Positions 10,846 through 54,499 of a DNA stretch of 54,499 nt are shown in pieces. Origin of the DNA: Candidatus Portnoybacteria bacterium. Lineage in GTDB: Bacteria; Patescibacteriota; Minisyncoccia; Portnoybacterales; GWB1-42-6. The stretch spans positions 1 to 54,499 of the forward strand of contig JACQXN010000017.1 in assembly GCA_016208745.1 (NCBI GenBank), read 5' to 3'. Below the pieces are notes generated by a model, which did not search any database, had not been told where the DNA came from, and was given only the letters and a program-made list of their open reading frames with translations. Numbering within the stretch: position 1 is the stretch's first letter; every line of letters starts with the position of its first letter. A program made the position numbers and the translations under genes.

Positions 10846-10904
10846 GCCAATGTTGTTAAAATTTTCAAGCTCAATGCGTAGAAAATTTTGCTACAACATT
10901 GAGC

Positions 10905-11025: not shown

Positions 11026-12184
11026 CTACGGCTTCGCCTTGTAATTTTTGACAAAACTCTCTATAAATTCATCTAATCCCCCGTCTAAAACTCTTTCTGG
11101 CTGACGGCTTTCAATCTCTGTTCTGTGATCTTTAACCATTTTATACGGATGCAAGACATAAGAACGGATTTGCGCGCCCCATTCAGCTGTTCCCTCGCTT
11201 ATTTTTACGTTTGAACGGATTTTTTGCTTCTCTTTTTCCTGCTTTTTTAATTCCAGCTGATAGAGCTTGCTATAAAGAATCTTCATTGCCTGCTCTTTGT
11301 TGGCTGCTTGTGAACGCTCGCTTTGGCAGGCAACCGCAATGCCGGTCGGCTCATGAGTTAAACGAACAGCTGATTCTGTTTTATTGACATATTGTCCGCC
11401 CGGGCCAGAAGAACGAAAAGTGTCAACTCTTAAATCTTTTGGGTCAATTGAGATTTCGGGCGCTTTATCAAATTCAGGCAGAACTTCGACCAAGGCAAAA
11501 GAGGTATGGCGTAAATTATTAGCATTAAATGGCGATAAACGAACCAGCCTATGAACGCCCGCCTCGCCTTTTAAATATCCATAGGCATACTGGCCTTTAA
11601 CTTCTATGGTCACGTTTTTTATACCCGCTTCCTGGCCGGCGTGAATATGTAAAACTTTAGCCAAAAAATTATGCGATTCAGCATAACGAAGATACATCCG
11701 CAAAAGCATTTCAGCCCAGTCCTGCGCTTCGGTCCCGCCCGCGCCGCTATAAATTGATAAAAGAGCACTGCCTGAATCGTATTTTTCGGGGAGAAAAGTG
11801 GCCAACTCTTCTCTGCTAACTATTTTTTCTAGTTCCAGGTATTTTTTTTCAATTTCTTTTTCTAGGTTCTGCTCCCCCCTTTTTAAAGGGGGGGTGAGGG
11901 GGATTTTCTCTTTAGATTCTTCGGTTTCCACTAACTCCGCCAACTCCGCTAAATCATTTAATTCCTTATCTATTTTTTCCCATCTCTCCCTTTCTTCTTT
12001 CAGAATGTTGACTTCCTGCGAGGCCTCTTTAGCTTTTTCTTGGTCTTGCCAAAAGTCTGGCTGCCCCATTAGACTCTCCAATTCCTTAATTTTACTCTCT
12101 TTTGACGTCAAATCAAAGAAAGTCCGCGATCTTTTGGAGGCGGTTTTTTAAATCTTCTAGTTTCTTTGGCAAATTCTCTATCAT
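11026..12184 (-). CDS. prfB: Peptide chain release factor 2 with a programmed +1 frameshift (ORF0 12184-12116; shift at CTT TGA T; ORF1 from 12114)
   Basis: ORF0 is MIENLPKKLEDLKNRLQKIADFL-stop. The +1 frame continues DLTSKESKIKELESLMGQPDFWQD, collinear with the E. coli RF2 junction (...GYL / [23 protein letters not shown]). The SPF tripeptide region and GGQ (SGPGGQYVNKTESAVR) are present. Confidence 0.9.
11871..11905. repeat. GGAGGG/CCCTCC hairpin repeat inserted in-frame in prfB
   Basis: gctcccccctttttaaagggggggtgagggggatttt is the same ~35-nt unit as at 20625-20660 and 25664-25700. It is translated as KIPLTPPLKRGEQ. Confidence 0.7.
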
Positions 12185-13437: not shown

Positions 13438-13490
13438 ATTTTTTACTGAAATGAATTTTTTATCGCGCCTGTGAAAAATTTTTTATTTCC

Positions 13491-13705
13491 TCTCTTGTCT
13501 GGCAAAAATTTCGATTTTTAATTCCGTCTTGCATCTGAAAATTTTGCCAGAAAATAGGGACGAGCGAGTCCTAAGAAAATCGTCGACCGACCCGCCCAAG
13601 GCGGGGAGTTTAGGAGACGATTTTCTAGATGAGCGAGCCCATATTTTCTCAAAATTTTCAGTGCAAAGCGCTTTTTCCGCCGCTTTTTGGCGCCAAAAAA
13701 GCGGC
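13491..13705. repeat. ~190-nt composite structured repeat, copy A (core 13528-13705, preceded by a 5' fragment)
   Basis: Outer stem cttgcatctgaaaattttg..agaaaata / tattttctcaaaattttcagtgcaaag and inner stem aagaaaatcgtc / gacgattttct. The apex ends gagtttaggag. A trailing hairpin gccgctttttgg-cg-ccaaaaaagcggc follows. Confidence 0.75.
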
Positions 13706-13730
13706 TTTGGGTTACCGCCAAATGGCGGCA

Positions 13731-14177
13731 TTATCTAAAAAAATACTTAAACCACTTAACTATATTTAATTCTTTTTTCGTCTCTGATTCTGTCTGCGAT
13801 AAGTTTTTAGACTGATTTCTTTGCGCTTGCGCCAAATCCTGCGGGGAAATGGCGTCGCCTAAGGTTGTGGTTGCGTCTTTTAGCGGTTCAATTATCACCA
13901 CTTCTTCGCCTTCTTTTCTTAAATTAAGTTTTTCCCGCGCTTCTTTTTCCAAAAAACTTTGACTGCCAAAATATTCCAGCAATTTTGAAATTTCCTGATT
14001 ATTCTCTTGCGACTGCTCAATCTGCGCCTTTAGACTCTGTGTTTCTTTATTAAGTTCGTATTTTTTATAAAACACATTAACCAGATTAACAATCAACCAG
14101 ATAAAACCAAGCAACAGCAAAAAAAGCGTGATTTTTGAACTTAAAATCTTCTTGATATTCCCTTCTTGGTCTGGCAT
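13731..14177 (-). CDS. FtsB/DivIC-like septum formation initiator (tentative)
   Basis: Single N-terminal TM helix followed by a coiled-coil (KKYELNKETQSLKAQIEQSQENNQEI). Assigned from architecture only. Confidence 0.4.
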   Translation of the reverse strand: MPDQEGNIKKILSSKITLFLLLLGFIWLIVNLVNVFYKKYELNKETQSLKAQIEQSQENNQEISKLLEYFGSQSFLEKEAREKLNLRKEGEEVVIIEPLKDATTTLGDAISPQDLAQAQRNQSKNLSQTESETKKELNIVKWFKYFFR

Positions 14178-14310
14178 ATGATATGATTAATCTATTATGA
14201 AAAAATCTTTTGTTAAAACAATTTGGATAATTCTTATCAGCTTAGTTGTACTAAGCATGGTCTTTTTAACCCTCGCCCCGTTATTTGGATAATAATACAG
14301 AACGGCTCTA

Positions 14311-14646
14311 TTTGGCAAAAATCTCAATCAAGCGTGCTTGATTTTTAATTTATCCTCGCATCTGAAAATTTTGACTTCTTTTCTTCTTGCCTGACAAAAA
14401 TTTCGATTTTTAATTCCGTCTTGCATCTGAAATTTTTAACTCTTGATTTATTCTTGCATCGAAAAATTTTGTAAGAAAATTGAGATGAGCGAGGCGTAAA
14501 AAATTGGCGACGGAGGAGTGAAGCGACGAGTTTAGGAGCTAATTTTTAGATGAGCGAATCCCTGCCTGGCGGCAGACAGGCAATTTTTTCAAAATTTTAT
14601 CGCTGCAAGTAATCTTTTGGTTGCTTTTCTGTTAGCAGAAAAGCAA
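14311..14646. repeat. ~190-nt composite structured repeat, copy B (core 14453-14646) plus upstream partial units
   Basis: The core has the same architecture as copies A, C and D, and its apex cgacggaggagtgaagcgacgagtttaggag is identical to copy D. 14387-14436 is near-identical to 13494-13545. Confidence 0.75.
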
Positions 14647-14656
14647 CAAGAAAAAA

Positions 14657-16561
14657 TTATTTCTTCAAAATCTCCAGAAAAACATTCTGAGGGATTTTTA
14701 TTTTCCCAATAGATTTCATCTTTTTTTTGCCCCGCTTCTGCTTTTCCAATAGTTTCCTTTTGCGAGAATAATCTCCGCCGTAAAGATAGCCGGTCACATC
14801 TTTCCGCATCGCCGCGATAGTTTCGCGCGCGATGATTTTGCCGCCAAGAGCGGCCTGCAAACTCACAGCAAACATTTGTTTGGGCAAAACTTCCTTTAAC
14901 TTACTAACTAGAGCCCTGCCTTCTTGAAAAACTCTTTCTCTTGGGACAATACGGCTTAAAGAAGACTCCTTATCACCAGCCACTAAAACATCCATCTTAA
15001 CCAAATCGGCGCTGCGCCATTCCAAGATCTCATAGCTCATGGAAGCATAACCGGAACTGACGGATTTTAAACGATCGTAAAAATCAACTATAATCTCGCG
15101 CAAAGGCGCTTCGCAAGAGAAAATGAATCGCTCGCTACCAAGATATTGAGTGTTTTTATAAACCCCGCCAGAAGACTGAACTAGTTTCATTATTGCGCCA
15201 AGATAAACATTGGGACAAATAATTTCCAATTTAATCCACGGCTCTTTAATCTGCTCCAGCCGGCTTGGGTCTGGCATCTCTTCAGCTGAATAAATTGTTT
15301 TTTCTTTATGCCCTGATTTTTCAATAATTTGATAAGCAACGCTTGGCGTTGTGACGATAAGATCAAGACCATATTCCCTTTTTAGTCTTTCACTGATAAT
15401 TTCCAGATGCAGCATTCCCAAAAACCCGCATTTAAATCCGCGGCCTAACGCTTCTGAAGACTCGGGCTCAAAAACAAGCGCGGCATCATTTAGTTTTAAT
15501 TTATTTAACGAGTCTTTTAAGTGGTCGTATTCTGCATCAGCTGAAGGATAAAAGCTGGCAAAAACCATCGGCCTTGGCTCCTTATAACCAGCCAGTGGAT
15601 TTCTGGCTTGATGATGAAAATTAGTTATTGTGTCGCCAACGCGGCATAAACTTACATCTTTAAAACCAGTAGCAATATAGCCAATGTCGCCAGCGCCAAG
15701 CTCGTTTCTTTGCGTTAAAGCCGGCTTAAATATTCCGACTTCCAAAACTTCAGATTGAGCGTGCGAACCTATTAAAAATATTTTTTCACCAGCCTTAATC
15801 TGGCCGTCAACAATTCTGACATAAGCCAAAACGCCTTTATAGGCATCGTAAACTGAATCAAAAATCAAAGCGCGCAATGGCTGGTTTATATTAACTTGGG
15901 GCGCTGGAATTTTTTGAATGACCGCCTGCAATAATTCTTCAACTCCTTTTCCTTCTTTGGCGGAAATTTTATAGATCTCCGCGTTAGAATCTCCTAATAT
16001 CTCTCTTATCTGCTCTTCCGCTTCTTTGACTCTGGCGCCCGGCAAATCAATTTTATTAATCGCTGGGATAATTTTTAAATTTTGCTCTTTGGCTAAATAT
16101 AAATTAGCTAGAGTCTGTGCTTGCACGCCTTTGGTCGCGTCAACCAGTAATATCGCGCCCTCAACCGCAGCCAACGAACGGGAAACCTCGTAAGAAAAAT
16201 CTACATGGCCGGGGGTGTCTATTAAATTTAAAGTGTAAAAATCAAAATTTAAAATTTTGGTATCCCGCTCCGCGGGATTTATTTTTAATTTTTCATTGTC
16301 ATTTTGATTTTTGCCCGCCCCGCTTCGCTTGGCGAGGCCGGGGATATTTACATTTTGCATTTTATACGCCATCCTAACCGGCTGCAATTTTATCGTTATC
16401 CCTTTTTCTCTTTCCAAATCCATCTGATCCAAATACTGCTCTCGCATTTTTCTTTTCTCAACCGCGCCGGTCAATTCCAAAAGCCGGTCCGCTAAAGTGG
16501 ATTTTCCGTGGTCAATATGAGCCAAAATTGCAAAATTCCTAATGTTCTTTAGCTCGGTCAT
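14657..16561 (-). CDS. lepA: Elongation factor 4 (LepA), with a ~33-aa insertion in the G domain
   Basis: NFAILAHIDHGKSTL, DTPGHVDF, NKID, and the C-terminal LepA region (GGDYSRKRKLLEKQKRGKKKMK). Confidence 0.95.
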   Translation of the reverse strand: MTELKNIRNFAILAHIDHGKSTLADRLLELTGAVEKRKMREQYLDQMDLEREKGITIKLQPVRMAYKMQNVNIPGLAKRSGAGKNQNDNEKLKINPAERDTKILNFDFYTLNLIDTPGHVDFSYEVSRSLAAVEGAILLVDATKGVQAQTLANLYLAKEQNLKIIPAINKIDLPGARVKEAEEQIREILGDSNAEIYKISAKEGKGVEELLQAVIQKIPAPQVNINQPLRALIFDSVYDAYKGVLAYVRIVDGQIKAGEKIFLIGSHAQSEVLEVGIFKPALTQRNELGAGDIGYIATGFKDVSLCRVGDTITNFHHQARNPLAGYKEPRPMVFASFYPSADAEYDHLKDSLNKLKLNDAALVFEPESSEALGRGFKCGFLGMLHLEIISERLKREYGLDLIVTTPSVAYQIIEKSGHKEKTIYSAEEMPDPSRLEQIKEPWIKLEIICPNVYLGAIMKLVQSSGGVYKNTQYLGSERFIFSCEAPLREIIVDFYDRLKSVSSGYASMSYEILEWRSADLVKMDVLVAGDKESSLSRIVPRERVFQEGRALVSKLKEVLPKQMFAVSLQAALGGKIIARETIAAMRKDVTGYLYGGDYSRKRKLLEKQKRGKKKMKSIGKIKIPQNVFLEILKK

Positions 16562-20620: not shown

Positions 20621-20624
20621 GATT

Positions 20625-20660
20625 CTCCCCTCCTTTTTAAAGGAGGGCTGGGGTGGATTT
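20625..20660. repeat. GGAGGG/CCCTCC hairpin repeat directly upstream of the murJ start (contains its SD)
   Basis: ctcccctcctttttaaaggagggctggggtggatttt. Confidence 0.7.
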
Positions 20661-23373: not shown

Positions 23374-23583
23374 CTTATATCGAAATTATTTAATAAATCC
23401 GTTTCGTAGCGAAATTACAGAATTTCTGGCGAGCCAAGGACGGACGACAAAGGCGTATATGTAAATATCCGCCAAGGAGGACGGACGACGGCGCAGCCGA
23501 AATTCTGCAATTGCAGTAGAATAAGGATTTTTTAAATAATTTCTTATATTATAACATAATAAAAAAACTTGAGAATTCACAAG

Positions 23584-25658: not shown

Positions 25659-25663
25659 ATTAT

Positions 25664-25742
25664 TCCCTCCTTTTTAAAGGAGGGCTAGGGAGGATTTGTG
25701 TCTTTCTAAAAATCCTCCTTAATCCCCCTTTCAAAAAGGGCG
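25664..25742. repeat. GGAGGG/CCCTCC hairpin repeat plus a second hairpin, upstream of the GT4 start
   Basis: tccctcctttttaaaggagggctagggaggattt, then aaaaatcctcc...cccctttcaaaaaggg. Confidence 0.7.
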
Positions 25743-27526: not shown

Positions 27527-28633
27527 CTAATGAAAAGAGTTTTTATATTCTTTCCATTCCCCCTCCACAAAATCTTTAATCTTTCGTTTAAAGATTTCTT
27601 TATCAAACTGCAAAGCGTGCTCCCTAATTTTTTGAGGATTAAATTCCAAAGACTGAAAATGGATAAGCGCTTTAATTAAAAAATCGGTCTTCTGCTCTTT
27701 AAAAAATATTCCTGTTTCTCCCTCTTTGATTGTTTCCAGCGCCCCACCAGCTCCAAATGCGATAACTGGCCGGCCAGAAGCCATCGCCTCAATAGGAGTT
27801 ATGCCAAAATCCTCTTCCTGCGGAAAAATAAACGCCCGGCATTTGGCGTAGAGATCTCTTAAAACCGCATCAGAAACCAGTCCCAAAAATTCGATTGTTG
27901 GACCAGCAATGTTTTTTAATTTTCTAAATTCCGGCCCATCGCCGACAATTTTTAACGACCAACCTAAATGATTAAAGGCGGAAATAGCCAAATCGATTCT
28001 TTTATAAGAAAGGAGGCGGGAAACAATCAAAAAATAATTACCAGCAACAGGAGAAAGGTAAAAAAGATTTGTTTTAATCGGCGGATGGATAACAAATGAT
28101 TCCTGTTGATAATATTTTTTGATACGCGAAGCGACAAATCGAGAATTAGCAATATATTTATCCGGCCTGTCAGCTGCTGCCTGATCCCAAATCCGAAGAT
28201 AATTCATAAAAAATGGAATGATTTTTCTGATAAAAACCGGGTAGCCGAATTCTCTAACATATTTATGGCTATCATCCCAGGCATAGCGCGTGGGCGTATG
28301 ACAATAGCAAATATGCAAAGCTTCCGGCTTTGATATTATGCCTTTGGCGAAACTGGAAGAATCGGAAATAATTAAATCGTATTTTGAAAAGTCAAACGAT
28401 TCAACGCCAAGGGGCATCAACATTAAAAATGGCCGGTGATGCGACTTAACAAAAGGTATTTTTTGCAAAAAAGAAATCTTTATTTTCCGGCTTTCAAAAG
28501 CGCCGCCCGTACGTTTTTTATCATAGATCAAAGTAAAAATCGGCGCCTCTGGCCAAATTTCACAAAATGCCTCAAGAACCCTCTCCGCCCCTCCGTATTG
28601 GTTAAGATAATCGTGGACTAGTGCGACACGCAT
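27527..28633 (-). CDS. Glycosyltransferase family 4 (GT-B)
   Basis: EDFGITPIEAMASGRPVI motif. The start ATG at 28633 has no SD (see the 53-bp repeat finding). Confidence 0.8.
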   Translation of the reverse strand: MRVALVHDYLNQYGGAERVLEAFCEIWPEAPIFTLIYDKKRTGGAFESRKIKISFLQKIPFVKSHHRPFLMLMPLGVESFDFSKYDLIISDSSSFAKGIISKPEALHICYCHTPTRYAWDDSHKYVREFGYPVFIRKIIPFFMNYLRIWDQAAADRPDKYIANSRFVASRIKKYYQQESFVIHPPIKTNLFYLSPVAGNYFLIVSRLLSYKRIDLAISAFNHLGWSLKIVGDGPEFRKLKNIAGPTIEFLGLVSDAVLRDLYAKCRAFIFPQEEDFGITPIEAMASGRPVIAFGAGGALETIKEGETGIFFKEQKTDFLIKALIHFQSLEFNPQKIREHALQFDKEIFKRKIKDFVEGEWKEYKNSFH

Positions 28634-28635
28634 AA
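28583..28635. repeat. 53-bp perfect direct repeat, copy 1 (first 17 codons of the GT4 gene plus 2 nt)
   Basis: ctccgcccctccgtattggttaagataatcgtggactagtgcgacacgcataa is identical to 28766-28818. Confidence 0.9.
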
Positions 28636-28765: not shown

Positions 28766-28818
28766 CTCCGCCCCTCCGTATTGGTTAAGATAATCGTGGA
28801 CTAGTGCGACACGCATAA
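28766..28818. repeat. 53-bp perfect direct repeat, copy 2 (183 nt upstream, in frame, carries the SD)
   Basis: Identical to 28583-28635 and preceded (minus sense) by ggggaggggaagcgttattt-ATG. Confidence 0.9.
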
Positions 28819-34893: not shown

Positions 34894-35083
34894 CTTGCCT
34901 GGCAAAAATTTTATTAGAAAATCGAGATGAGTTTTGCGTAAAATTTGCGTGCTGTGGTGGGGCCCCGACCGTGAGGTTGGGGTGTTATGCATAGCAAATT
35001 TAGCAAAACGAATTCGATTTTCTTAAAATTTTATGCCCGGCAAAGCAGTTTTTTGGTTACTTTTTTGCTGTCAAAAAAGTAAC
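34894..35083. repeat. ~190-nt composite structured repeat, copy C
   Basis: Outer stem cttgcctggcaaaaattttattagaaaatcga / tcgattttcttaaaattttatgcccggcaaag. The apex is unrelated to the other copies. The trailing hairpin ggttacttttttg-ctgt-caaaaaagtaac abuts the recJ stop. Confidence 0.75.
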
Positions 35084-35084
35084 G

Positions 35085-36824
35085 TCATAAAGATTGCTTT
35101 ATGTCAATAATCCTTAGCTGTAAATCCCTGTTCCCATTCCATTCGTCAACTATCAACTCAAAAGCCAAATCAACCTTATCGCCTGCTTTTAAATTCTCAT
35201 TGCCGTTTTTTGCGAGCCTAAAACCAATAGCTTTAAAAATTTTATTATTTGGATTTCCCCCTTTTAGTTCTAGCTTCAAATGCTTGGAGCCGTTGCCAAC
35301 CAAGCGGGAGTTTACAATCTCCAAATCTTTTATCATAAAGACTGGGTCTCTATTGCCATTTCCAAAAGGCTCAAATTTCACCAAATTATCAAAAAGCTCC
35401 CAATTAATGTTTTTGGGCGCAATTTCTGTCTCAATTTCCAAAACAGGCGCCAGGTCTTCGGGCTTGATTTTTGCTCTCGCAAACTGATTTATTTTCTCTC
35501 TAAAAAGAGGCAAGTTCTCTTTCTTAAGAGAGAGTCCGGCAGCTACGGGATGGCCGCCAAAGTCTTTTAAAAATTCCGCAGAATCTTTCAACGCCTCAAT
35601 TATATTAAAAGCCGGCAGGCTTCGGGCTGAACCGCGGCTTAAGCCATTCTCGTGATTTAAAATAATTGTCGGCCGCTGATATTTATCGGATATTTTTCCC
35701 GCCACCAGACCGACAATGCCTGCTGACCAATTTTGGTCTCCTTCAATAATAATCGGGTAATTGGGGTCGTTAATATAGCTTTTTATTCTCTCCTCAACCT
35801 GCGCCACTATGTCATCAGTTATTTTTTGTCGCTGGCGGTTAAAATTATCTATTTCTTGAGCAAGCTCCCGTGCCTTTTCCCGTTCTTGTGACTCCAAAAG
35901 CCTAAACGCCAAATTAGCATGTTTTATGCGACCGGCAGCATTAAGCCGTGGCGCAAGCATAAAACCTAAAGCGTAAGAATTAAGATTCGTTGTCATAGTT
36001 TCTGCTTCAAAAACAGGATCAAGCCGGGCAATTTTCATTAATTCCTGCAAACCGATGCGTTGGGTCTGCGCTAAAACTATCAAGCCATAACGAACCAATG
36101 TTCTATTTTCTCCAATCAAAGGCACGCAATCAGCCACTGTTGCCAGGGCCACCAAATCAAGCAACCATTTTTCAAATCCTTCTTTAATTTTTTGACCACC
36201 TTCTTTAATCAAAGCCTGAACCAATTTGAAAGCCACACCCGCGCCAGCTAATGTCTTGAAAGGATATTTATCGCCTTTTTGGAAAGGGTCAATAATAACT
36301 TTGGCAGAAGGCAGCTTTTTGCCCAATTGATGATGATCGACAATAATGACTTCCATTTTTAAAGAATTGGCTAATTTAACTTCAGCTACATCGGTTATGC
36401 CGCAGTCAACTGTGACAATGAGTTTTGTGTTTTCCTTGGCTATTTTTTTTATCGCTGTGCTGTTTAATCCGTAGCCATCATTAATTCTGTCGGGAATCTG
36501 AACTTCTCCCAAGCAAGCGCCAAGCGCTTCAAGAGTGCTTTTTAGAATAAGTGCTCCGCAAACTCCATCAGCGTCATAGTCGCCAAAAATCGTTATTTTT
36601 TCCTGCTTTTTTACCGCCTTTAAAATTCTCTTAACCGCTTCTTTTACACCCAACATTAAAAAAGGATCATGCAGATCCTCCTTATAATCTGGGTTAAAGA
36701 ATTCGTCAATTTCTTTCTGTGTTTTAAGCCCTCGGCTGTACAGAAGCTGTAAAACCATCGGGCTGTATTCGGGAAACTGACCTATGAATTCTTTTGGTGC
36801 TTTTGGTTTAAGAAGCCAATTCAT
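35085..36824 (-). CDS. recJ: Single-stranded-DNA-specific exonuclease RecJ
   Basis: DHH-family motifs (IFGDYDADGV, VDCG, IIVDHH, GGH) and a C-terminal OB-like region. Confidence 0.9.
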   Translation of the reverse strand: MNWLLKPKAPKEFIGQFPEYSPMVLQLLYSRGLKTQKEIDEFFNPDYKEDLHDPFLMLGVKEAVKRILKAVKKQEKITIFGDYDADGVCGALILKSTLEALGACLGEVQIPDRINDGYGLNSTAIKKIAKENTKLIVTVDCGITDVAEVKLANSLKMEVIIVDHHQLGKKLPSAKVIIDPFQKGDKYPFKTLAGAGVAFKLVQALIKEGGQKIKEGFEKWLLDLVALATVADCVPLIGENRTLVRYGLIVLAQTQRIGLQELMKIARLDPVFEAETMTTNLNSYALGFMLAPRLNAAGRIKHANLAFRLLESQEREKARELAQEIDNFNRQRQKITDDIVAQVEERIKSYINDPNYPIIIEGDQNWSAGIVGLVAGKISDKYQRPTIILNHENGLSRGSARSLPAFNIIEALKDSAEFLKDFGGHPVAAGLSLKKENLPLFREKINQFARAKIKPEDLAPVLEIETEIAPKNINWELFDNLVKFEPFGNGNRDPVFMIKDLEIVNSRLVGNGSKHLKLELKGGNPNNKIFKAIGFRLAKNGNENLKAGDKVDLAFELIVDEWNGNRDLQLRIIDIKQSL

Positions 36825-42634: not shown

Positions 42635-43435
42635 TTAAATTCTTGTCAAAACTTCACATCCATCTTTTGTAACAGCCACCGTATGCTCAGAATGCGCGGC
42701 TAAAGATTTGTCCTGCGTTTCAAAGGCAAAACTATTTTTATTTTGTCTGACTTTCCAGTCGCCAGCCGCAATCATTGGCTCAATAGCTAAAGTCATTCCT
42801 TCTTTTAAAACCGGGCCTTCGCCAACCTGACCAAAATTTGGCACTTCCGGATCTTCATGAAGCTCATAACCAACCCCGTGGCCAACAAGATTTCTGATTA
42901 CAGAAAAACCTTCGCCTTCCACATATTTTTGAATCGCAAAACCAATATCGCCAAGATGCGCCCCGGGTTTTATTTTTTCAATCGCGACATCAAGCGCTCC
43001 TTTGGCAACTTTTATTAGTTTTTCCGCCTCATTGCTTATTTCCCCCACCGGCACGGTCAAAGCCGCGTCAACAAAAAATGGCTTGTTCTCCGGATTACAA
43101 GAAGCGCCCATTGGACAATGGCTGCATTTGGCAACCGGGTATAAAATTCCCAGATCCAACCCTATAATTTCCCCTTCTTTCAGCTTCCTTTCAGAAGGCA
43201 CGCCATGGACAATTTCTTCGTTAACAGAGGTGCATAAAGCCGCTGGGAATCCCTGATAACCTAAAAAGGCAGGGTTTCCGCCACAAGCAAAAACAAGGTC
43301 CGAAGCGGCCTTGTTTAATTCCATTGTGGTAATACCCGGTTTTACTTTTTCTGCTATTGCCTGCAAAATCTTAGCCAGAACTTTTCCGCCTTCGGCCATA
43401 ATATTTATTTCTTGTGGGGTTTTTATCCGAATCAT
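42635..43435 (-). CDS. map: Methionine aminopeptidase type I
   Basis: Metal ligands fall in the expected order (GLD, VDAA, HGVG, LAIEP, EHT). About 18 extra Cys-containing residues lie between the first two Asp ligands. Confidence 0.9.
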   Translation of the reverse strand: MIRIKTPQEINIMAEGGKVLAKILQAIAEKVKPGITTMELNKAASDLVFACGGNPAFLGYQGFPAALCTSVNEEIVHGVPSERKLKEGEIIGLDLGILYPVAKCSHCPMGASCNPENKPFFVDAALTVPVGEISNEAEKLIKVAKGALDVAIEKIKPGAHLGDIGFAIQKYVEGEGFSVIRNLVGHGVGYELHEDPEVPNFGQVGEGPVLKEGMTLAIEPMIAAGDWKVRQNKNSFAFETQDKSLAAHSEHTVAVTKDGCEVLTRI

Positions 43436-43526
43436 GCGCTTCGCTTAAATTAAAAGTTAAAAATGAAAAATGAAAAATTTAGGAATTCCGTCGAAATTTT
43501 CTCTGAAAATTTTGACTCCATAATTT
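43436..43526. repeat. Ribosomal-cluster intergenic repeat, family A (adk|map)
   Basis: aaattaaaagttaaaaatgaaaaatgaaaaatttaggaattcc-gtcgaaatttt-ctctg-aaaattttgac-tccataattttt. Confidence 0.8.
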
Positions 43527-44201
43527 TTATTTTTGCTCTAGCGCCCTAACAATGTCCTCATGAACTTCCTCTATTGGTCTGTTGCCGTCAATTTTTACTA
43601 ACAAACCATTGGCTGCGTAATGATCAATTACCGGCTGAATTTCTGTTTCAAAAACGTCTAAACGATGCCTGACAACTTCTGGATCATCATCCGCTCTTTT
43701 GACAAGCGGACCGCCGCATTTATCGCATTTCTCAAGTTTTTTAAATTCTCCAAAATATGGAATTATCCGGCCGCACTTTTCGCACATCCGGCGCTGGGTT
43801 AAGCGAGCATATGATTCATCAGCCGAAATATCAATCAGAATAACTTTTGCAAACTCAAGCCAGTCATACCATGCCAGAGCATCTTCCATTAATCGGGCTT
43901 CAATAAGTTTTCTTGGGCTGCCGTCAAAAACAACGCCTCCAAAATTTGGCTTATTTTTTAAAGCATCAATTTTATCCAACCAGAACTTAAAAATTAAAAA
44001 GGTCGGGATTAAATCGCCTCTTTCAAGAATTTCTTTAAGTTTCTTGGTGCTAAAATTATGATCCTCTTTGACGACTTCCCGCAACAGCTCTCCGCTGCCA
44101 ATATATGATAAACCAAACTTCTCCTGAAGCATTTTTGCCTGGGTGCCTTTGCCGCAACCAGGCCGACCGAGAATTATAAGGATTAGTGGATTACTTTGCA
44201 T
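43527..44201 (-). CDS. adk: Adenylate kinase (zinc-lid type)
   Basis: P-loop GRPGCGKGTQ and a lid with CEKCGR...CDKCGG. Confidence 0.9.
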   Translation of the reverse strand: MQSNPLILIILGRPGCGKGTQAKMLQEKFGLSYIGSGELLREVVKEDHNFSTKKLKEILERGDLIPTFLIFKFWLDKIDALKNKPNFGGVVFDGSPRKLIEARLMEDALAWYDWLEFAKVILIDISADESYARLTQRRMCEKCGRIIPYFGEFKKLEKCDKCGGPLVKRADDDPEVVRHRLDVFETEIQPVIDHYAANGLLVKIDGNRPIEEVHEDIVRALEQK

Positions 44202-44209
44202 TTTTTAAA

Positions 44210-44387
44210 CTTGCATGGCAAAAATTTTTTTATAAAATCGCAGCGAGCCAAACGTTGAAAAAATTGCCGACGGAGGAGTGAAGCGACGAGTTTAGGAGGC
44301 AATTTTTAGCGAGGCGAGCCCGATTTTATTAAAATTTTATGCCTGCAAGCAGTTTTTTCCGCCGCTTTTTTGCTGCCAAAAAAGCGG
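44210..44387. repeat. ~190-nt composite structured repeat, copy D (secY|adk)
   Basis: Outer stem cttgcatggcaaaaatttttttataaaatcg / cgattttattaaaattttatgcctgcaag and inner stem gaaaaaattgcc / ggcaattttt. The apex is identical to copy B. The trailing hairpin is ccgcttttttg-ctgc-caaaaaagcgg. Confidence 0.8.
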
Positions 44388-44393
44388 TAAAAT

Positions 44394-45668: not shown

Positions 45669-45779
45669 TGTTCTCCGCCAGCTGGCGGATCAATTTAAAA
45701 GTTAAAAATGAAAAGGTAAAAAGTTAATTTTTCGGTTTTTAATTTTTAAATGTCGTTTTTATATTTTATATTTTCCTTT
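45669..45779. repeat. Ribosomal-cluster intergenic repeat, family B (rplO|secY)
   Basis: ccgccagctggcgg hairpin followed by caatttaaaagttaaaaatgaaaaggtaaaaagttaatttttcggtttttaatttttaaatgtcgtttttatattttatattttccttttt. By my reading this is identical to the copy at 52947-53059 over about 90 nt. Confidence 0.85.
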
Positions 45780-46211
45780 TTAAATTATGTTTCCTCCTGC
45801 CTTCTCCACCTTCTCTTTTGCGCTCTGGGATATTTGAAGGCCCTTAAAACTTAACTTCTTTTTTATTTCTCCGTCTCCTAAAATCTTAACTTCCGGCATT
45901 CTCCCTTTTATTCTACTAATTAATTTTCTTTCTAGCAATGATTTTATAGACACTATCTCCCCTTCTTTAAAAAATTTGCCTAAAAAACCAAGGTTAATTA
46001 TGAGAGGCTTTGTCTGTGTTGATCTGAATTTATAGCCGCGCATCTTTGGCGTTTGCTTAACTAAATCGCGCCACTCTGGCCTGATTTTTGCACCGGCTCT
46101 TGATTTCTGCCCCTTAACTCCACGGCCAGAAAAAGTCCCGCGCTTACCGCCACGGCCAACGCGTTTCTTAGTTTTTTGTTTATTTGTCGATCTTATTTGA
46201 TGTAGCTGCAT
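45780..46211 (-). CDS. rplO: 50S ribosomal protein L15
   Basis: RVGRGGKRGTFSGRGVKGQKSR motif, at the canonical position. Confidence 0.9.
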   Translation of the reverse strand: MQLHQIRSTNKQKTKKRVGRGGKRGTFSGRGVKGQKSRAGAKIRPEWRDLVKQTPKMRGYKFRSTQTKPLIINLGFLGKFFKEGEIVSIKSLLERKLISRIKGRMPEVKILGDGEIKKKLSFKGLQISQSAKEKVEKAGGNII

Positions 46212-46345
46212 AATTCTCCGTCCCGCCTTGGCGGGCGGACTAAATTAAAAGTGAAAAATGAAAAGTGAAAAATTTATGAATTCCGTTAAAATTTTCAAAG
46301 AAAATTTTAACTCCATAATTTTTTCCGCCTGCCTGGACGGGCGGA
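46212..46345. repeat. Ribosomal-cluster intergenic repeat, family A flanked by two GC hairpins (rpsE|rplO); occupies the position where rpmD would be
   Basis: cccgccttggcggg; the family A core with stem gttaaaatttt/aaaattttaac; ccgcctgcctggacgggcgg. Confidence 0.8.
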
Positions 46346-47240: not shown

Positions 47241-47801
47241 TTACATTTCGGTTGAAGCAGTTTTCTTGCCGGCTTTGATTTTAACCACCTCATCCTGATA
47301 TCTTATCCCCTTGCCTTTATATGGCTCGGGTTTCTTTTTCGCCCTTAAAGCAGCTGCCACCTGACCAACTAATTGTTTGTCTGGACCAGAAACGCTAATA
47401 ATATTTTTTTCCAGCTTAAATTCAATTCCTTCGGGTGCCTCAAATTCAACCGGGTGAGAAAATCCCAAATTTAAAACAAGCTTATTGTTTCCCTGCGCCT
47501 GAGCGCGAAAACCAACACCCTGAATTTCCAGTTTTTTCTCAAAGCCATCTTTGACCCCTTTGACCATATTGGCAATAAGCGCCCTGCCCAATCCCCAAAA
47601 AGCCATTATTTTTTTATCAGCTAGGGCTGAATCAGAAGCAGGAGAAATCAAAATTTTATTATCTTCCAGCTTGATTTCCAAATCCTGCGGAAACTTATAT
47701 TGTAATTCGCCCTTGGGCCCCTTAACCATTATCAAATCGCCATCGATTTTTACTTCGACTTTTTCTGGAATTAAAATTGGTTGTTTTCCGATACGTGACA
47801 T
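47241..47801 (-). CDS. rplF: 50S ribosomal protein L6
   Basis: MSRIGKQPILIPEKVEV... with two L6 repeats. Confidence 0.9.
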   Translation of the reverse strand: MSRIGKQPILIPEKVEVKIDGDLIMVKGPKGELQYKFPQDLEIKLEDNKILISPASDSALADKKIMAFWGLGRALIANMVKGVKDGFEKKLEIQGVGFRAQAQGNNKLVLNLGFSHPVEFEAPEGIEFKLEKNIISVSGPDKQLVGQVAAALRAKKKPEPYKGKGIRYQDEVVKIKAGKKTASTEM

Positions 47802-47906
47802 ATGCGCTTCGCTAAATTAAAAGTTAAAAATGTAAAATGTAAAATTTAGGAATTCGTGAAAAATTTTTGAACAAAAATTTTTCACTCATTAATTATCAAT
47901 TATTTT
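47802..47906. repeat. Ribosomal-cluster intergenic repeat, family A (rpsH|rplF)
   Basis: The core stem gtgaaaaattttt/aaaaatttttcac is a compensated variant of the other copies. Confidence 0.8.
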
Positions 47907-48293
47907 CTACCATATTTCACACAAAATTTCTCCGCCTAGACCAGCCTTTTTTGCTTCCTTATTAGTCATTAGTCCTTTTGAGGTAGAAATAATCGCCCGG
48001 CCATAACCCTGTTTAACGGGCCAGATTTGTCCTTTTTTCAAATAGAGCCTTCGTCCCGGCTTGCTTTTCCTTAAAACGCCTTGGATCGCTCCTTGCCCTT
48101 CATCGTATCTTAAAGTAATTGAAATCTTATGATTAGCTTTTTTGCCCTTTTCTTCAATACCGCCAATAAAATTTTCTTTCTCTAAAATTTTAGCCAAAGC
48201 AAACTTTAGGTTAGAAAAAGGCATTTCCACATTTGGCCTGCCCGCTGCTTGGGCATTTTTGATTCTTATTAACATGTCAGAAATTGTATCCAT
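47907..48293 (-). CDS. rpsH: 30S ribosomal protein S8
   Basis: DTISDMLIRIKNAQAAGR. Confidence 0.9.
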   Translation of the reverse strand: MDTISDMLIRIKNAQAAGRPNVEMPFSNLKFALAKILEKENFIGGIEEKGKKANHKISITLRYDEGQGAIQGVLRKSKPGRRLYLKKGQIWPVKQGYGRAIISTSKGLMTNKEAKKAGLGGEILCEIW

Positions 48294-48418
48294 AGTTCTC
48301 CGCCCGCTGGCGGATCAATTTAAAAGTTAAAAATGAAAAAGTAAAAGTTAATTTTCCGGTTTTTAATTTTTAAATGTCGTTTTTATATTTTCTATTTTCC
48401 TTTTTAAATTTACCGCTT
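48294..48418. repeat. Ribosomal-cluster intergenic repeat, family B (rpsN|rpsH)
   Basis: ccgcccgctggcgg hairpin followed by the family B unit. Confidence 0.85.
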
Positions 48419-48604
48419 TTACCAGCTAGATTTCTTAATTCCCGGAATCATTCCTTGATTAGCTAATTCCCTAAAGCAAATTCGGCACAAATCAAAATCT
48501 CTCATATACCCACGCTTGCGCCCACAGCGAAAACAACGTCTAACAATTCTGGTTGTAAATTTGGGTTTTCTTTTTGATTTTGCAATTTGAGCTTTAGTCG
48601 CCAT
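48419..48604 (-). CDS. rpsN: 30S ribosomal protein S14, zinc-binding (type Z)
   Basis: 61 aa; [23 protein letters not shown]. Confidence 0.9.
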
Positions 48605-48696
48605 ATGCGCTTCGCTAAATTAAAAGTTAAAAATGAAAAGTGAAAAATTTATGAATTACGTCAAAATTTTCTTTGAAAATTTTGACTCCATAATTT
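48605..48696. repeat. Ribosomal-cluster intergenic repeat, family A (rplE|rpsN)
   Basis: Core stem gtcaaaatttt-ctttg-aaaattttgac. Confidence 0.8.
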
Positions 48697-49239
48697 TTAA
48701 TTTGTCTTTATTGGGAATCCCGTCATTCTAAATAATTCCATTCCTTCTTCTTGGGTTTTAGCAGTTGTCTTAACAGTTATTTCCAGACCAAAGATGTGAT
48801 GAATATTTTCATGAGAAATTTCGGGAAAAATGATATGTTCTTTCAAACCAATCGTTAAATTACCGTTCTGGTCAACTGATTTTTGATTAAGTCCGCGGAA
48901 ATCTCGACTTCGCGGCGAAGCAAGAGAGACCAACCTTTCTAGAAAATCAAACATCTTCTGTTTTCTCAATGTTGCCACCAAACCAACTTTCATTCCCTGC
49001 CTTGTTTTAAAAGCAGCAATGGCTTTTTTGGCTTTCGTAAAAACCGGTTTTTGTCCGACAATCATTGTTAAATCTCGAATAATTTCTTCTAGCGCCTTCT
49101 CGTCGCCGGAAAATTTTCCAATTCCAATATTAACCGTCACCTTTTCAAAGTGCGGAACCGCTAAGATGTTCCCATAACCAAACTTCTCTTTCATCGCCGG
49201 GATTACTTCTTTTTTGTATTTTTCCTGTAAACTTTTCAT
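48697..49239 (-). CDS. rplE: 50S ribosomal protein L5
   Basis: LQEKYKKEVIPAMKEKFGYGNILAVPHFEKVTVNIG. Confidence 0.9.
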   Translation of the reverse strand: MKSLQEKYKKEVIPAMKEKFGYGNILAVPHFEKVTVNIGIGKFSGDEKALEEIIRDLTMIVGQKPVFTKAKKAIAAFKTRQGMKVGLVATLRKQKMFDFLERLVSLASPRSRDFRGLNQKSVDQNGNLTIGLKEHIIFPEISHENIHHIFGLEITVKTTAKTQEEGMELFRMTGFPIKTN

Positions 49240-49551: not shown

Positions 49552-49742
49552 GCCAATTTTGTTTAAATTTATGAGCTCAATTTATTGTAGCGAAATAAAT
49601 TTAACTACAAAATTGAGCACCGAGCATATAATTTATTAATTTAAAAAAATGCCTTAGATTAATAAATTATGTGCTCGGTAAAGGTTTTGTAACCAAATTT
49701 TCTGCTCCGCCCTGGGCGGATCGAAAATTTGGACAAAGCCCT
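49552..49742. repeat. Intergenic hairpin cluster (rplN|rplX)
   Basis: gctcaatttattgtag...ctacaaaattgagc; caccgagcatataatttattaat...attaataaattatgtgctcggt; ccgccctgggcgg. Confidence 0.7.
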
Positions 49743-51847: not shown

Positions 51848-51953
51848 GTTCGCTTACGCTCAATTTAAAAGTTAAAAATGAAAAAGTAAAAGTTAATTTT
51901 TCGGTTTTTAATTTTTAAATGTCGTTTTTATATTTTCTGTTTTCCTTTTTCAA
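51848..51953. repeat. Ribosomal-cluster intergenic repeat, family B (rplV|rpsC)
   Basis: gttcgcttacgctc followed by the family B unit. Confidence 0.85.
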
Positions 51954-52523
51954 TTATATTGATTTTCTCCTAAATACTTTCTTCATATTGCCAAAAGTCT
52001 GTCTGCTGAAAAATCTTTTCTTTGATTGAGTTGACGCTCCATATGGCTTTGCCGGCACCGATGGTTTAGTTTTTGACTCCGCCTGCTCTGGAACAGCCAG
52101 TATTTTTTCTTCTTTTTCAACAATAGATTTTTCCCTTAATTCTTCTTTGCCTGTCGATTTTTTCTTTTTAATATCAGAAATTTTAGTAGGAACCTTTTCA
52201 TCCAAAATTAAATTTATCTTAGAAGTCCTTTTTAAAATAGGGGTCGCCCGACCCATAGCTCGCGGTAGCCAGCGTTTGAGGCTCAGGCCTGCTTCAACCG
52301 TTAATTTAGAAATAAACAAGTTATTTTCATCCAAGCTAAAATTGTGCTTAGCATTGCCGATCGCTGAACTTAATAATTTATACAATGGCTCGGCTGTCTT
52401 TTTGCTCATAAACCTAAGCTGAGCTTGAGCCTTTTTGGCATTCATCCCTTTTACTAAATTTGCCACCAATCTTACTTTCCTTGGCGACATTCTTAGATTG
52501 TCTAGTTTGGCTGTAACTTTCAT
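51954..52523 (-). CDS. rplV: 50S ribosomal protein L22 with a ~75-aa Lys/Glu-rich C-terminal extension
   Basis: MKVTAKLDNLRMSPRKVRLVANLVKG. The ATG at 52523 is preferred over the TTG at 52532. Confidence 0.9.
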   Translation of the reverse strand: MKVTAKLDNLRMSPRKVRLVANLVKGMNAKKAQAQLRFMSKKTAEPLYKLLSSAIGNAKHNFSLDENNLFISKLTVEAGLSLKRWLPRAMGRATPILKRTSKINLILDEKVPTKISDIKKKKSTGKEELREKSIVEKEEKILAVPEQAESKTKPSVPAKPYGASTQSKKRFFSRQTFGNMKKVFRRKSI

Positions 52524-52946: not shown

Positions 52947-53059
52947 GTTCGCTTACGCTCAATTTAAAAGTTAAAAATGAAAAGGTAAAAAGTTAATTTT
53001 TCGGTTTTTAATTTTTAAATGTCGTTTTTATATTTTATATTTTCCTTTTTAATTAATCC
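52947..53059. repeat. Ribosomal-cluster intergenic repeat, family B (rplB|rpsS)
   Basis: gttcgcttacgctc followed by a family B unit identical to the 45669 copy. Confidence 0.85.
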
Positions 53060-53887
53060 TTACTTCCTTCTCTGCAAAATAAACCTATTTGACCATTTCT
53101 TTTTTCTTCTTGTTTTAACCCCTAGCGCCTGCTTGCCCCAAGGAGTTTTTGGCCCTCTCCTTAAACCAATCGGCGCTCGGCCTTCGCCTCCGCCATGAGG
53201 ATGGTCAACTGGATTCATGGCTGAACCTCTGACTGTCGGCCTTATCCCCATCCATCGCGCTCTTCCTGCTTTGCCAATGACCTCAATGCCGTGCTCAGGA
53301 TTGCTGACTTGGCCAATTGTAGCAAAACAAGTATCTCTAAACTTTCTAATTTCACCTGATGGAAATTTTATGTCTGTGTATCCGCCTTCGTTAGCCATAA
53401 CTTGGGCAAAAGACCCGGCCGAATGAACAAGTTTTCCGCCGCTGCCCGGGACAGTTTCAATATCATGAATTTGCGTGCCAACTAAAATATTTTTTAGCAA
53501 AAGACGATTGCCGATATTTGCCGGCGCGTTTTCTTGAGTTATAACTTCGCTGCCTGTTTTTAAATCATGCGGCGCAATAATATATCTTTTTTCGCCATCT
53601 TTGTAATTTAATAAAGCGATAAAGCAAGAACGATTAGGGTCGTATTCAATTGCGGAAACTTTAGCTGAGATTCCAAATTTGTCCCGTCTGAAATCTATTA
53701 AGCGATACTGCCTTTTGTGCCCGCCTCCTTTATGCCATACAGTTATACGGCCGCTGCGACCACGGCCTGCCTGTTTTTTTAACGGCGCCAGCAAGCTCTT
53801 TTCCGGTTCTTTGATAGTCAAAATCCCCTTCGTTTCAACACGAGTCATTTGCCTTCTTCCTGGGCTTGTTGGTCGATAATCTTTCAT
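53060..53887 (-). CDS. rplB: 50S ribosomal protein L2
   Basis: [29 protein letters not shown]. Confidence 0.95.
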
Positions 53888-54017: not shown

Positions 54018-54479
54018 CTATCGGGGCATTATTTCAATCTTTTCTCCTTCTGCTAATTTGACCATTGCTTTTTTGAAACCGGGCTTAAAACCTTCGCTCT
54101 TGCCAATCCGACGGGCTTTTCTTGGAGTGTTTACAATATTGACTTTATCAACTGCCACGCCATACAAATCCTGAACCGCTTTCTTGATTTCCTGTTTATT
54201 AGCCGGGGAGTAAACATTAAAAACGTAGATATTTCTATCAGCCAGCATACCGGACTTCTCTGTCACGCGCGGGGATTCTAAAATTCTGTAGGCTTGGGAA
54301 AAATGTTTTTTCTCAACCCGCTTGGTGAGCTTGGCCGGCTTTTGCAAAATTTCATCTAAATTCTTCTTGAGCTTTGGCGCCTCTTTTGGCGCGGCTTTCG
54401 CTGACTTTTCCGAAACCTTTGCCTTTTTAGCTTCCGGCTCTATTTTTTTAGTTTTTTTAAATCGATCAAATAATGACAT
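54018..54479 (-). CDS. rplW: 50S ribosomal protein L23 with a ~55-aa Lys/Ala-rich N-terminal extension
   Basis: Core SPRVTEKSGMLADRNIYVFNVYSPANKQEIKKAVQDLYGV. Confidence 0.85.
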   Translation of the reverse strand: MSLFDRFKKTKKIEPEAKKAKVSEKSAKAAPKEAPKLKKNLDEILQKPAKLTKRVEKKHFSQAYRILESPRVTEKSGMLADRNIYVFNVYSPANKQEIKKAVQDLYGVAVDKVNIVNTPRKARRIGKSEGFKPGFKKAMVKLAEGEKIEIMPR

Positions 54480-54499
54480 ATGAGCTTCGCTAAATTAAA
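54480..54499. repeat. Start of another family A repeat (truncated by the window edge)
   Basis: atgagcttcgctaaattaaa matches the first 20 nt of the copies at 47802 and 48605. Confidence 0.6.

Follow-up and report, generated by a model that had tools for sequence, protein, structure and literature searches.

The 54,499-nt stretch of Candidatus Portnoybacteria contig JACQXN010000017.1 (assembly GCA_016208745.1; hereafter the window) carries, in four of the spacers between its genes, copies of a structured element of ~180–210 nt, and the question that this locus raises is what such a repeat is and which molecule, DNA or RNA, has been selected to fold. We find that covariation strongly supports the fold, that the 3′ end carries the sequence signature of a pseudoknot with a third strand and that the orientation of the element follows the replication strand. 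We read it, with a rough probability of 0.42, as a non-coding repeat comparable to REPINs or attC sites that would be selected as folded single-stranded DNA.

Scanning the window for the pattern CTTGCN{5,6}AAAATTTTNNNNNAAAAT returned four matches, at the places where the initial annotation had put multi-stem copies A to D, against none in 100 shuffled sequences (0 expected). The covariance model R1 (183 positions, 19 copies as input), with which every position of the window was scored, gave A, B, C and D as the only full copies, all on the plus strand (13528–13707, 14453–14649, 34894–35085 and 44210–44390; 137–176 bits); on the minus strand the same loci reach only 26–39 bits. Column identity among the four averages 66%, and their alignment contains the conserved blocks named in the initial annotation.

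13528–13705, plus strand: copy A, full element, in the spacer between the DivIC/FtsB-like gene and tRNA-Gly; 137 bits with R1.
14453–14647, plus strand: copy B, full element, downstream of lepA; 163 bits with R1.
34894–35083, plus strand: copy C, full element, in the recJ/rnhA spacer, with a type-2 apex GUAUGC...GCAUAGCAA; 148 bits with R1.
44210–44388, plus strand: copy D, full element, in the secY/adk spacer; 176 bits with R1.
13528–13668, plus strand: long hairpin of copy A, with an outer stem carrying AAAATTTT in both arms, tandem G.A loops CGAGCGAG / UGAGCGAG, an inner stem and a GC-rich tip.
14561–14580, plus strand: extra alignment block within the 3′ arm of copy B, a palindromic GC-rich insertion, CCTGCCTGGCGGCAGACAGG.

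Relatives were sought by pattern scans of species-representative genomes, a set that leaves out the window's own genome, and of Joint Genome Institute (JGI) metagenomes, followed by model searches in which copies above 50 bits were counted. About 40 further full copies were obtained, in Candidatus Portnoybacteria (STD1_185, STC_33 and CG08_land_8_20_14_0_20_40_83), in the metagenome-assembled genome (MAG) JAZDMV and in other Patescibacteria contigs, including Saccharibacteria; the presence of copies in related MAGs, proposed as a check, is thus confirmed. Three copies lie within 8 kb of each other in STC_33 (L042). The first genome-wide pattern, built on 18 fixed bases of the 5′ arm, was too loose and was abandoned: it matched at least 116 loci, nearly all by chance, and the only real ones were L040, L042, L065 and L116. 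Its chance matches include an unrelated ~80-nt hairpin element of gut Clostridia MAGs (L010, L058 and L064), which starts CTTGC..TTAAAATTTT.

The element is also absent from Rfam, in keeping with the initial annotation, which could not match it to a known RNA family. In Rfam 15 the whole window matched three tRNAs only, the region 13440–14700 searched at E<=10 gave only chance microRNA and small-RNA matches far below threshold, and 18 related loci carrying the 3′ module gave tRNAs only. Rfam holds families derived from TnpB-associated RNAs, among them IS605-orfB-I and -II; neither the window nor the 18 related loci matched a TnpB-associated RNA family. Viral contigs and plasmid and phage collections contained no real copy, and literature searches found no description of this element.

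A long imperfect hairpin takes up ~140 nt of each copy. It consists of an outer helix with the self-complementary AAAATTTT in each arm (the ~30-bp outer stem first described), internal loops, an inner A/U-rich helix whose sequence varies from copy to copy, and a variable GC-rich tip of two types; the apex that B and D were said to share is 94% identical over 52 nt (family D15). The GAKGAGCGAG-like motifs seen on both strands of the internal loop do face each other, and read as tandem G.A pairs flanked by G-C, e.g. CGAGCGAG opposite UGAGCGAG. Distant Patescibacteria keep the loop motifs RCGAG...GCGU / UAGCGAG.CGAG as well as the apex motif GAGUUUAGGAG, and the foot sequences covary (CTTGC/GCAAG, CGCGC/GCGCG and CCGCC/GGCGG; also GCCGC, GGCTAC and GGTTAC). 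Some copies have an extra GC-rich palindrome or near-palindrome, e.g. CCTGCCTGCCGGCAGGCAGG, inserted in one arm; inserts similar to that of copy B lie on the 5′ side in L130/L137 and in L120. These nested inserts are optional and loopless, and triloops such as GCGAAGC are frequent in the tip hairpins. By eye, GAUGAG was rejected as a hammerhead, kink-turn or C/D box, because the motif varies as RNYGAG and CUGANGA is missing. A reading of TTGCAT-N15/16-GAAAAT in the 5′ arm as a promoter mimic was likewise discarded: its boxes are not kept in distant members, which end CGCGC or CCCGAC.

On a plain MAFFT alignment of 19 copies, RNAalifold predicted 48 pairs, 18 of them with compensatory changes. 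When the pseudoknot described below is included, 96.0% of the cells in this alignment are paired, compared with 41–56% when the partners are slid by 1–3 columns; changes on both sides occur in 21 of the 51 pairs, and none of 500 shuffles reached the observed covariation. For 44 copies aligned to the model, an alignment that leans towards that model, 94.8% of cells are paired and 40 of 51 pairs are compensatory. The fold is strongly supported by this covariation. The inner stem indeed keeps its pairing while its sequence differs between copies, and the proposal that the fold is under selection gains strong support both from the independent MAFFT alignment and from the 44 copies.

The 3′ part had been described as a short T-run followed by a separate hairpin. 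Both are present (the run of copy A has five T, not six), but they are not separate. The four nucleotides that directly follow the long hairpin can pair with the loop of the small one, and linker and loop covary in at least seven combinations: GCAG/CUGC, GCGC/GCGC (copy A), UAAU/GUUA (copy B), AACU/GGUU, GUGG/CCAU, GCGG/CCGC and CGGG/CCCG. In this linker–loop helix 83–90% of the cells are paired and three of the four pairs change on both sides; over 92 unique module-like hairpins from all loci analysed, linker and loop share 3.41 paired bases on average, as against 3.03 ± 0.07 with shuffled linkers. The covarying complementarity argues for an H-type pseudoknot, within which T-run and small hairpin are, judged from their sequence, a single interacting module.

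13668–13705, plus strand: 3′ module of copy A, with linker GCGC (13668–13671), T5 (13672–13676) and hairpin (13680–13705) with loop GGCGCC (13689–13694); the linker pairs with GCGC of the loop, and the runs are T5/T5/A6.
14609–14647, plus strand: 3′ module of copy B, with linker GUAAU, TCTTTT (14613–14618) and hairpin (14621–14647) with loop GTTAGC (14631–14636); UAAU of the linker pairs with GUUA of the loop, and the mirror is TCTTTT / TTTTCT / AGAAAA.
35045–35083, plus strand: 3′ module of copy C, with linker GCAG, T6 (35049–35054) and hairpin (35057–35083) with loop GCTGTC.
44349–44388, plus strand: 3′ module of copy D, with linker GCAG, T6 (44353–44358) and hairpin (44362–44388) with loop GCTGCC.

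The pyrimidine run is the mirror image of the pyrimidine arm of the hairpin, and hence a parallel match to its purine arm. TCTTTT...TTTTCT...AGAAAA is found in 18 copies and T5–6...T5–6...A5–6 in 25, so a C in the run always goes with a C-G pair in the stem and a T with T-A, with no discordant case among 43 once two alignment register shifts are read correctly. Since the C and T states both occur on the same stem types (CTAC, TTAC and CCAC), the three-way change either arose more than once or moved by recombination. Moreover, TCTTTT stands on exactly one side of nearly every TTTTCT...AGAAAA hairpin. Mirror repeats are not the product of any copying process that we know; a third strand running parallel to the purine strand, in U.A-U and C+.G-C triples, would explain them, and the pseudoknot would bring the run to the helix end where it is needed. 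Not all look-alike hairpins of other phyla follow the mirror rule. At the sequence level, three-way covariation in 43 of 43 copies makes an unusually clean case for a bacterial intramolecular triple helix.

Known triplex pseudoknots (telomerase RNA, SAM-II and preQ1-II; ENE for the triplex) run in the order 5′ strand of stem 1, pyrimidine loop 1, 5′ strand of stem 2, 3′ strand of stem 1 and A-rich 3′ strand of stem 2. The element has this same order, with a pyrimidine loop parallel to the purine strand and C facing G-C. It differs from them in lacking any Rfam match to these families, in not being tied to particular downstream genes and in a stem 1 of only 4 bp inside a 6-nt loop; unlike them, it may also be DNA. 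Many copies have a loop 1 of only 7 nt for a stem of 11 bp, which would allow loop-proximal triples only, at most.

The genes next to 37 copies were classed relative to the strand that folds (the sense strand). Eighteen copies are antisense to both neighbours, nine are sense to both, ten lie between convergent genes and none between divergent genes. The statement that copies always sit between co-directional genes thus holds in the window and fails elsewhere, the co-directional sites amounting to 27 of 37. The element usually occupies the entire gap, its 3′ end lying −1 to ~40 nt from a stop codon or 7–8 nt ahead of a start codon and its 5′ end 8–50 nt from the next gene; it always adjoins a gene 3′ end and avoids promoter-only regions, without a fixed orientation to the genes. 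In the window the small hairpin does abut the upstream stop codon (gaps of −1 to 23 nt), and the modelled 3′ end of copy C, at 35085, overlaps the recJ stop by 1 nt. The 5′ ends of C and D lie 8–10 nt from the start codons of rnhA (10 nt for C) and adk, which are read in the opposite direction. The flanking genes encode LepA, a DivIC/FtsB-like protein, tRNA-Gly(CCC), RecJ, RNase H, SecY and Adk, and almost all genes of the window are on the minus strand. Between copy B and the DivIC gene there is a small plus-strand open reading frame (ORF) at 14199–14294, MKKSFVKTIWIILISLVVLSMVFLTLAPLFG (31 amino acids, membrane-like); should it be real, copy B stands downstream of a gene of the same sense.

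Orientation follows GC skew, computed here with the elements masked. Contigs with several copies have one orientation each (plus for all four in the window, minus for all three in L042, and likewise in six other contigs). The sense strand is the strand of negative skew in 37 of 44 copies, and in roughly 23 of the 24 contigs with |skew| > 0.04; where gene strand and skew are in conflict, orientation goes with skew, 12 versus 3. Look-alike hairpins in Chitinophagales, Bacteroidota and others have no such bias. The plus strand of the window has a skew of −0.07 to −0.21 throughout, and the elements are G-rich islands on this C-rich strand. The ribosomal-protein operons are on the G-rich minus strand, and as a general rule in bacteria the G-rich strand that carries these operons is the leading strand. 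The foldable strand is therefore read as the leading-strand template, which has the same sequence as the lagging strand.

The secY/adk spacer, filled by copy D in the window, is empty (36–58 nt) in six relatives (L252–L257): in Portnoybacteria STD1_185, whose Adk and SecY segments are 79–84% identical and which carries the family at other sites, and in five genomes that are more distant. This is the one filled-versus-empty site, of the kind that the initial annotation had suggested looking for in relatives. Elements stand at the same junction in two to four species in several cases: upstream of pth (L116, L131 and L042; the flanking proteins are 36–66% identical), downstream of lepA (copy B in the window, L130, L134 and L125) and four further junction pairs occupied in more than one species. 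Copies at the same junction may differ in tip and pseudoknot type while their boundary is identical, which suggests that copies exchange sequence. For Adk, a look-up by exact protein gave no match. The Logan contigs reached with the window's DivIC and RNase H genes, L258 (SRR12113398) and L259 (SRR12113404), are only 914 and 2,657 nt long and end close to elements, so they offer no empty sites; the RNase H contig begins 82 nt upstream of rnhA, inside copy C. Such repeats probably break short-read assemblies of this kind; in practical terms they also yield spurious ORF calls, such as 13483–13738.

Truncated 5′ arms accumulate ahead of copies A and B, and the near-identical 5′ fragment reported before each of them is ~53 nt long and 94% identical (family D6; 14385–14437 against 13493–13545). 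An optional third hairpin follows copy A, and the same extension lies 3′ of the copies in L065, L133, L136, L137 and L236.

13493–13527, plus strand: degenerate 5′-arm fragment directly upstream of copy A; repeat families D4 and D6, without a stable fold.
14340–14452, plus strand: truncated 5′ arms upstream of copy B (14340–14376, 14385–14437 and 14438–14452); families D4 and D6, no full-model match.
13706–13729, plus strand: optional third hairpin after copy A, TTTGGGTTACCGCCAAATGGCGGCA; the DivIC stop codon (13731–13733) lies one base beyond.

Two rearranged copies were seen elsewhere. In L126 (7679–7839) a foreign GC-rich palindrome, CCCCGGCACC...GGTGCGGGG, sits inside the small hairpin, and in L183 (6385–6664) the long hairpin is separated from the 3′ module by additional hairpins.

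The element shares the way of life of dispersed intergenic palindromic repeats but has no membership in repetitive extragenic palindromic (REP) sequences, miniature inverted-repeat transposable elements (MITEs), attC sites or Rfam families, and there is a real chance that it is something further removed. Like REP sequences and their compounds (bacterial interspersed mosaic elements and REPINs), it is extragenic, occurs in many copies beside gene 3′ ends and in outline forms a long hairpin from two inverted conserved arms around a variable spacer, with compensatory changes in the arms, as described for REPINs (PMC3116915); REP repeats are also thought to be handled as folded single-stranded DNA (PMC6006769). 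It differs from them in having no GT[AG]G, and no fixed tetranucleotide at all, at the hairpin foot; its arms are not REP hairpins, an asymmetric pseudoknot/triplex module is added on the 3′ side, and the copies on a contig all have one orientation, tied to GC skew. With attC sites it has in common a structure that is conserved while the sequence is not, one strand as the active folded form and a place directly after gene ends. Unlike them, it lacks R and L boxes (RYYYAAC / GTTRRRY) and ends CTTGCA...TGCAAG or in covarying variants of these; there is no integrase or cassette array at the element, the neighbours are housekeeping genes, the orientation to genes varies, the length is about twice that of attC and a pseudoknot is present.

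MITEs such as Correia, ERIC and RUP resemble the element in their 100–200 nt, their terminal inverted arms of ~30 nt, their intergenic location, their truncated and nested copies and their presence or absence between relatives. The terminal arms of the element, unlike theirs, are not conserved but covary; its boundaries show no target-site duplication, the ends are asymmetric, with the module on the 3′ side only, and among the matches listed in the genome-wide 5′-arm scan every true one was a short element, with no longer parent element having the same ends. Ends of IS200/IS605 elements and their small derivatives and the omega-RNA of TnpB offer parallels in strand-specific hairpins, in 4-nt guide-like pairings and base triples in recognition and in scaffolds that end in a pseudoknotted hairpin. 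Another parallel is an orientation tied to replication (PMC6006769). Here, unlike there, no tnpA or tnpB gene lies beside any copy and no target tetranucleotide is conserved.

Our preferred reading, of a REPIN- or attC-like repeat selected as folded single-stranded DNA, would run as follows. In Portnoybacteria and the other Patescibacteria the family occupies spacers next to the 3′ ends of genes, and the pyrimidine run would act as third strand along the A/G run of the hairpin (T.A-T and C+.G-C triples). A putative strand-specific enzyme acting in trans might recognize this fold and copy or recombine the element; modules would be swapped between copies by recombination, and the element would spread or be overwritten. 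Copies would persist where the foldable strand is the leading-strand template and thus rarely single-stranded. Transcription through the element, in either orientation, would be a by-product, though the plain hairpin may still punctuate operon mRNAs. There are precedents: compensatory hairpin changes in REPINs (PMC3116915), single-strand transposition tied to the replication fork (PMC6006769) and, most directly for the retention of a foldable strand on the leading-strand template, the attC sites of sedentary chromosomal integrons, the recombining strand of which is on that template, limiting folding, in 25 of 30 cases (PMC5371416).

Several points weigh against this reading. No candidate enzyme was found: a query for Y1/HUH transposase homologues, including the REP-associated tyrosine transposase (RAYT, TnpA-REP), the single-copy gene of which REP repeats commonly flank, approximate as it was, found none in ~300 kb of scattered Patescibacteria loci. 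No target-site duplication or conserved target was seen by eye at the boundaries of 44 copies. The active strand of IS200/IS605 elements such as IS608 is on the lagging-strand template, opposite to what is found here, so that only the attC precedent matches, and GC skew measured over loci of 1–8 kb reports the direction of replication with much noise. Within a genome the copies are just ~60–70% alike, with no sign of a recent burst, and most junctions are kept between species whose flanking proteins are only 52–66% identical, as upstream of pth in three species; such persistence suits a function kept by the host, or steady gene conversion, better than active mobility. A pseudoknot, a triplex and conserved internal loops rich in purines are typical of functional RNAs.

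A broader alternative, which we consider less likely than not, is that the element represents an undescribed class of folded single-stranded nucleic acid across Patescibacteria, modules akin to it being present in Elusimicrobiota and perhaps in further phyla; the triplex pseudoknot would be its hallmark, and the replication strand would set its orientation. As RNA, such a class, if real, would amount to a large new family of non-coding RNAs transcribed head-on to replication and would imply a discrete sense transcript; as DNA, it would belong to a new system of single-strand recombination, transposition or replication, whose recognition module would be the first made of a triplex pseudoknot, and would imply a new enzyme. 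Patescibacteria have genomes of ~1 Mb and are under strong pressure to lose DNA, despite which dozens of 190-nt elements are kept, often at the same junctions across diverged species, and an orientation rule tied to replication instead of transcription is paired here with the evidence for a triplex.

Outside Patescibacteria, Elusimicrobium sp. RUG13843 (L173, L174, L182 and L249) has a multi-copy element of the same plan that scores 34–43 bits with R1: a long hairpin with A5T5 arms and a GAAGUGAGUUUG tip, followed by GCAC-TCTTTT-GCGAGC-TTTTCT-GGTGCC-AGAAAA. A different high-copy repeat, which ends GTAC-T6-GATGGC-A6-GTAC, occupies more than 20 loci (L142–L245) in Chitinophagales bin74; it was rejected as a member of the family, having neither linker–loop pairing nor skew bias. 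The only match to the Y1 query lies in this Chitinophagales genome, which encodes a homologue of Y1 (IS200-like) transposases (L177, 3155–3481; 28% identity over 114 amino acids, E=2e-8).

The main rival reading is that the element is a new class of structured non-coding RNA transcribed from the sense strand, a rod with protein-binding G.A loops whose 3′ triplex pseudoknot (U.A-U / C+.G-C) would block exonucleases or bind a partner, encoded by many scattered paralogous genes; we consider this rather unlikely. That one strand is selected seems clear, and this strand specificity counts for the preferred DNA reading as well. G.U pairs outnumber A.C mismatches 58 to 21, and in 37 of 41 copies the sense strand has the more stable fold, the margin being ~7 kcal/mol under RNA parameters and only ~1 under DNA parameters (for copy A folded as RNA, −66.4 kcal/mol on plus and −59.2 on minus). 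It is the better folder whether the genes are antisense (16 of 17 copies), sense (8 of 9) or convergent (8 of 10). Known mutation biases of replication and transcription would act in the opposite direction, which indicates selection on one strand, whatever the local mRNA strand. Reverse-complement RNA was discarded as the selected form, both for its poorer folding in 37 of 41 copies and because its A-run would presumably cross the minor groove and leave the G/C-specific mirror rule unexplained. The strand specificity and its greater size in the RNA energy model are what one would expect of an RNA, as are the H-type pseudoknot, whose pyrimidine loop 1 faces a stem 2 rich in A like those of telomerase RNA and SAM-II, the internal-loop and apex motifs shared by distant Patescibacteria, the look-alike in Elusimicrobium contigs and the positions kept over long divergence.

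Yet G.U pairs make up only 2.7% of the paired cells, and no −10-like box was found at a fixed distance upstream, TANNNT hexamers being spread evenly at 1–4 per position. A promoter for copies C and D would have to lie inside rnhA or adk, given the 8–10 nt left before their divergent start codons. With an orientation that tracks the replication strand, every such gene would be transcribed head-on to the fork, and nothing in Rfam resembles it even at E<=10. Together with the loopless palindromic inserts, the triloops and the self-complementary AAAATTTT, the missing promoter box, the spacing of C and D, the head-on transcription and the low G.U fit a DNA hairpin better, though none of these is decisive. 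Between the non-coding RNA and the structured mobile element that the initial annotation had offered, the matter is not settled; the evidence leans away from a dedicated RNA because orientation follows the replication strand, the same strand folds better regardless of mRNA strand, no promoter box stands at a fixed distance and C and D begin so close to divergent start codons.

It is improbable that the element serves as a one-way transcription stop, in which a stable hairpin and U-run would end head-on genes and block stray antisense transcription in leading-strand operons while letting co-directional transcription pass. Some features of an intrinsic terminator are there: a hairpin of −45 to −71 kcal/mol is followed within 3–4 nt, on the sense strand only, by T5–6 or TCTTTT, always beside a gene 3′ end and never between divergent genes, and the sense direction is the head-on direction. 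Nineteen of 37 copies start after the stop codon of a same-sense gene; the gap is mostly 11–24 nt where the genes are co-directional and reaches a few hundred nt at other sites. The other 18, antisense to both neighbours, have no sense-strand gene to terminate. At sense-oriented operon sites, such as that upstream of pth in three species, the next start codon follows 7–8 nt after the element, which leaves no room for a promoter. The U-run, moreover, covaries with the hairpin downstream, so that the selected molecule runs through the supposed stop point; the T-run is thus probably not a simple terminator tail.

A host chromosome element acting in replication, either a folded template-strand site that primes, pauses or marks or a site for a nucleoid protein at bent AAAATTTT boxes, is very improbable: orientation locked to GC skew, dense regular spacing (four copies in 54 kb, three in 8 kb of L042), junctions retained long-term and the recurrence of AAAATTTT pairs in other small intergenic hairpins of the window would suit it, but it has no precedent on the leading-strand template, priming signals are expected on the lagging-strand template, which carries the weaker-folding complement, and a double-stranded binding site would need no covariation of stems.

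Other repeats and hairpins occur in the window. AAAATTTT is present 37 times, often as pairs 13–24 nt apart, and small intergenic hairpins built on a AAAATTTT/AAAATTTT helix, some with a GC-rich tip, lie at 10858–10889, 46288–46308, 47860–47881, 48168–48191, 48663–48683 and 49692–49738; they may be minimal relatives of the element. A more divergent relative had been suspected at 23400–23520, but this region scores 10.3 bits with R1 (E=0.38) and is a different, separate hairpin of ~120 nt (−46.7 kcal/mol), whose two arms each carry GGACGGACGAC and which also has the motif GGCGAGCC. Spacers of the ribosomal-protein operons contain families D1 (106 nt; 45690–45795, 48314–48419, 51859–51964 and 52959–53064) and D2 (95 nt; 43446–43540, 46241–46335, 47813–47907 and 48616–48710), each with four copies and all copies in the same orientation. 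Family D9 (43428–43453, 47796–47821, 48599–48624 and 54474–54499) has a conserved TTTAGCGAAGCGCAT(ATG) on the gene strand, immediately at start codons of the ribosomal-protein region, and contains a GCGAAGC mini-hairpin with no evident Shine-Dalgarno sequence. A near-perfect 27-bp hairpin, CACCGAGCATATAATTTATTAATTTAA..., fills 49619–49680 in an intergenic spacer of the same region. An exact 53-nt direct repeat (family D14) lies at 28583–28635 and 28766–28818, 183 nt apart, and a hairpin of the CCCTCCTTTTTAAAGGAGGG type (family D10) occurs in three copies, at 11868–11906, 20622–20660 and 25659–25697.

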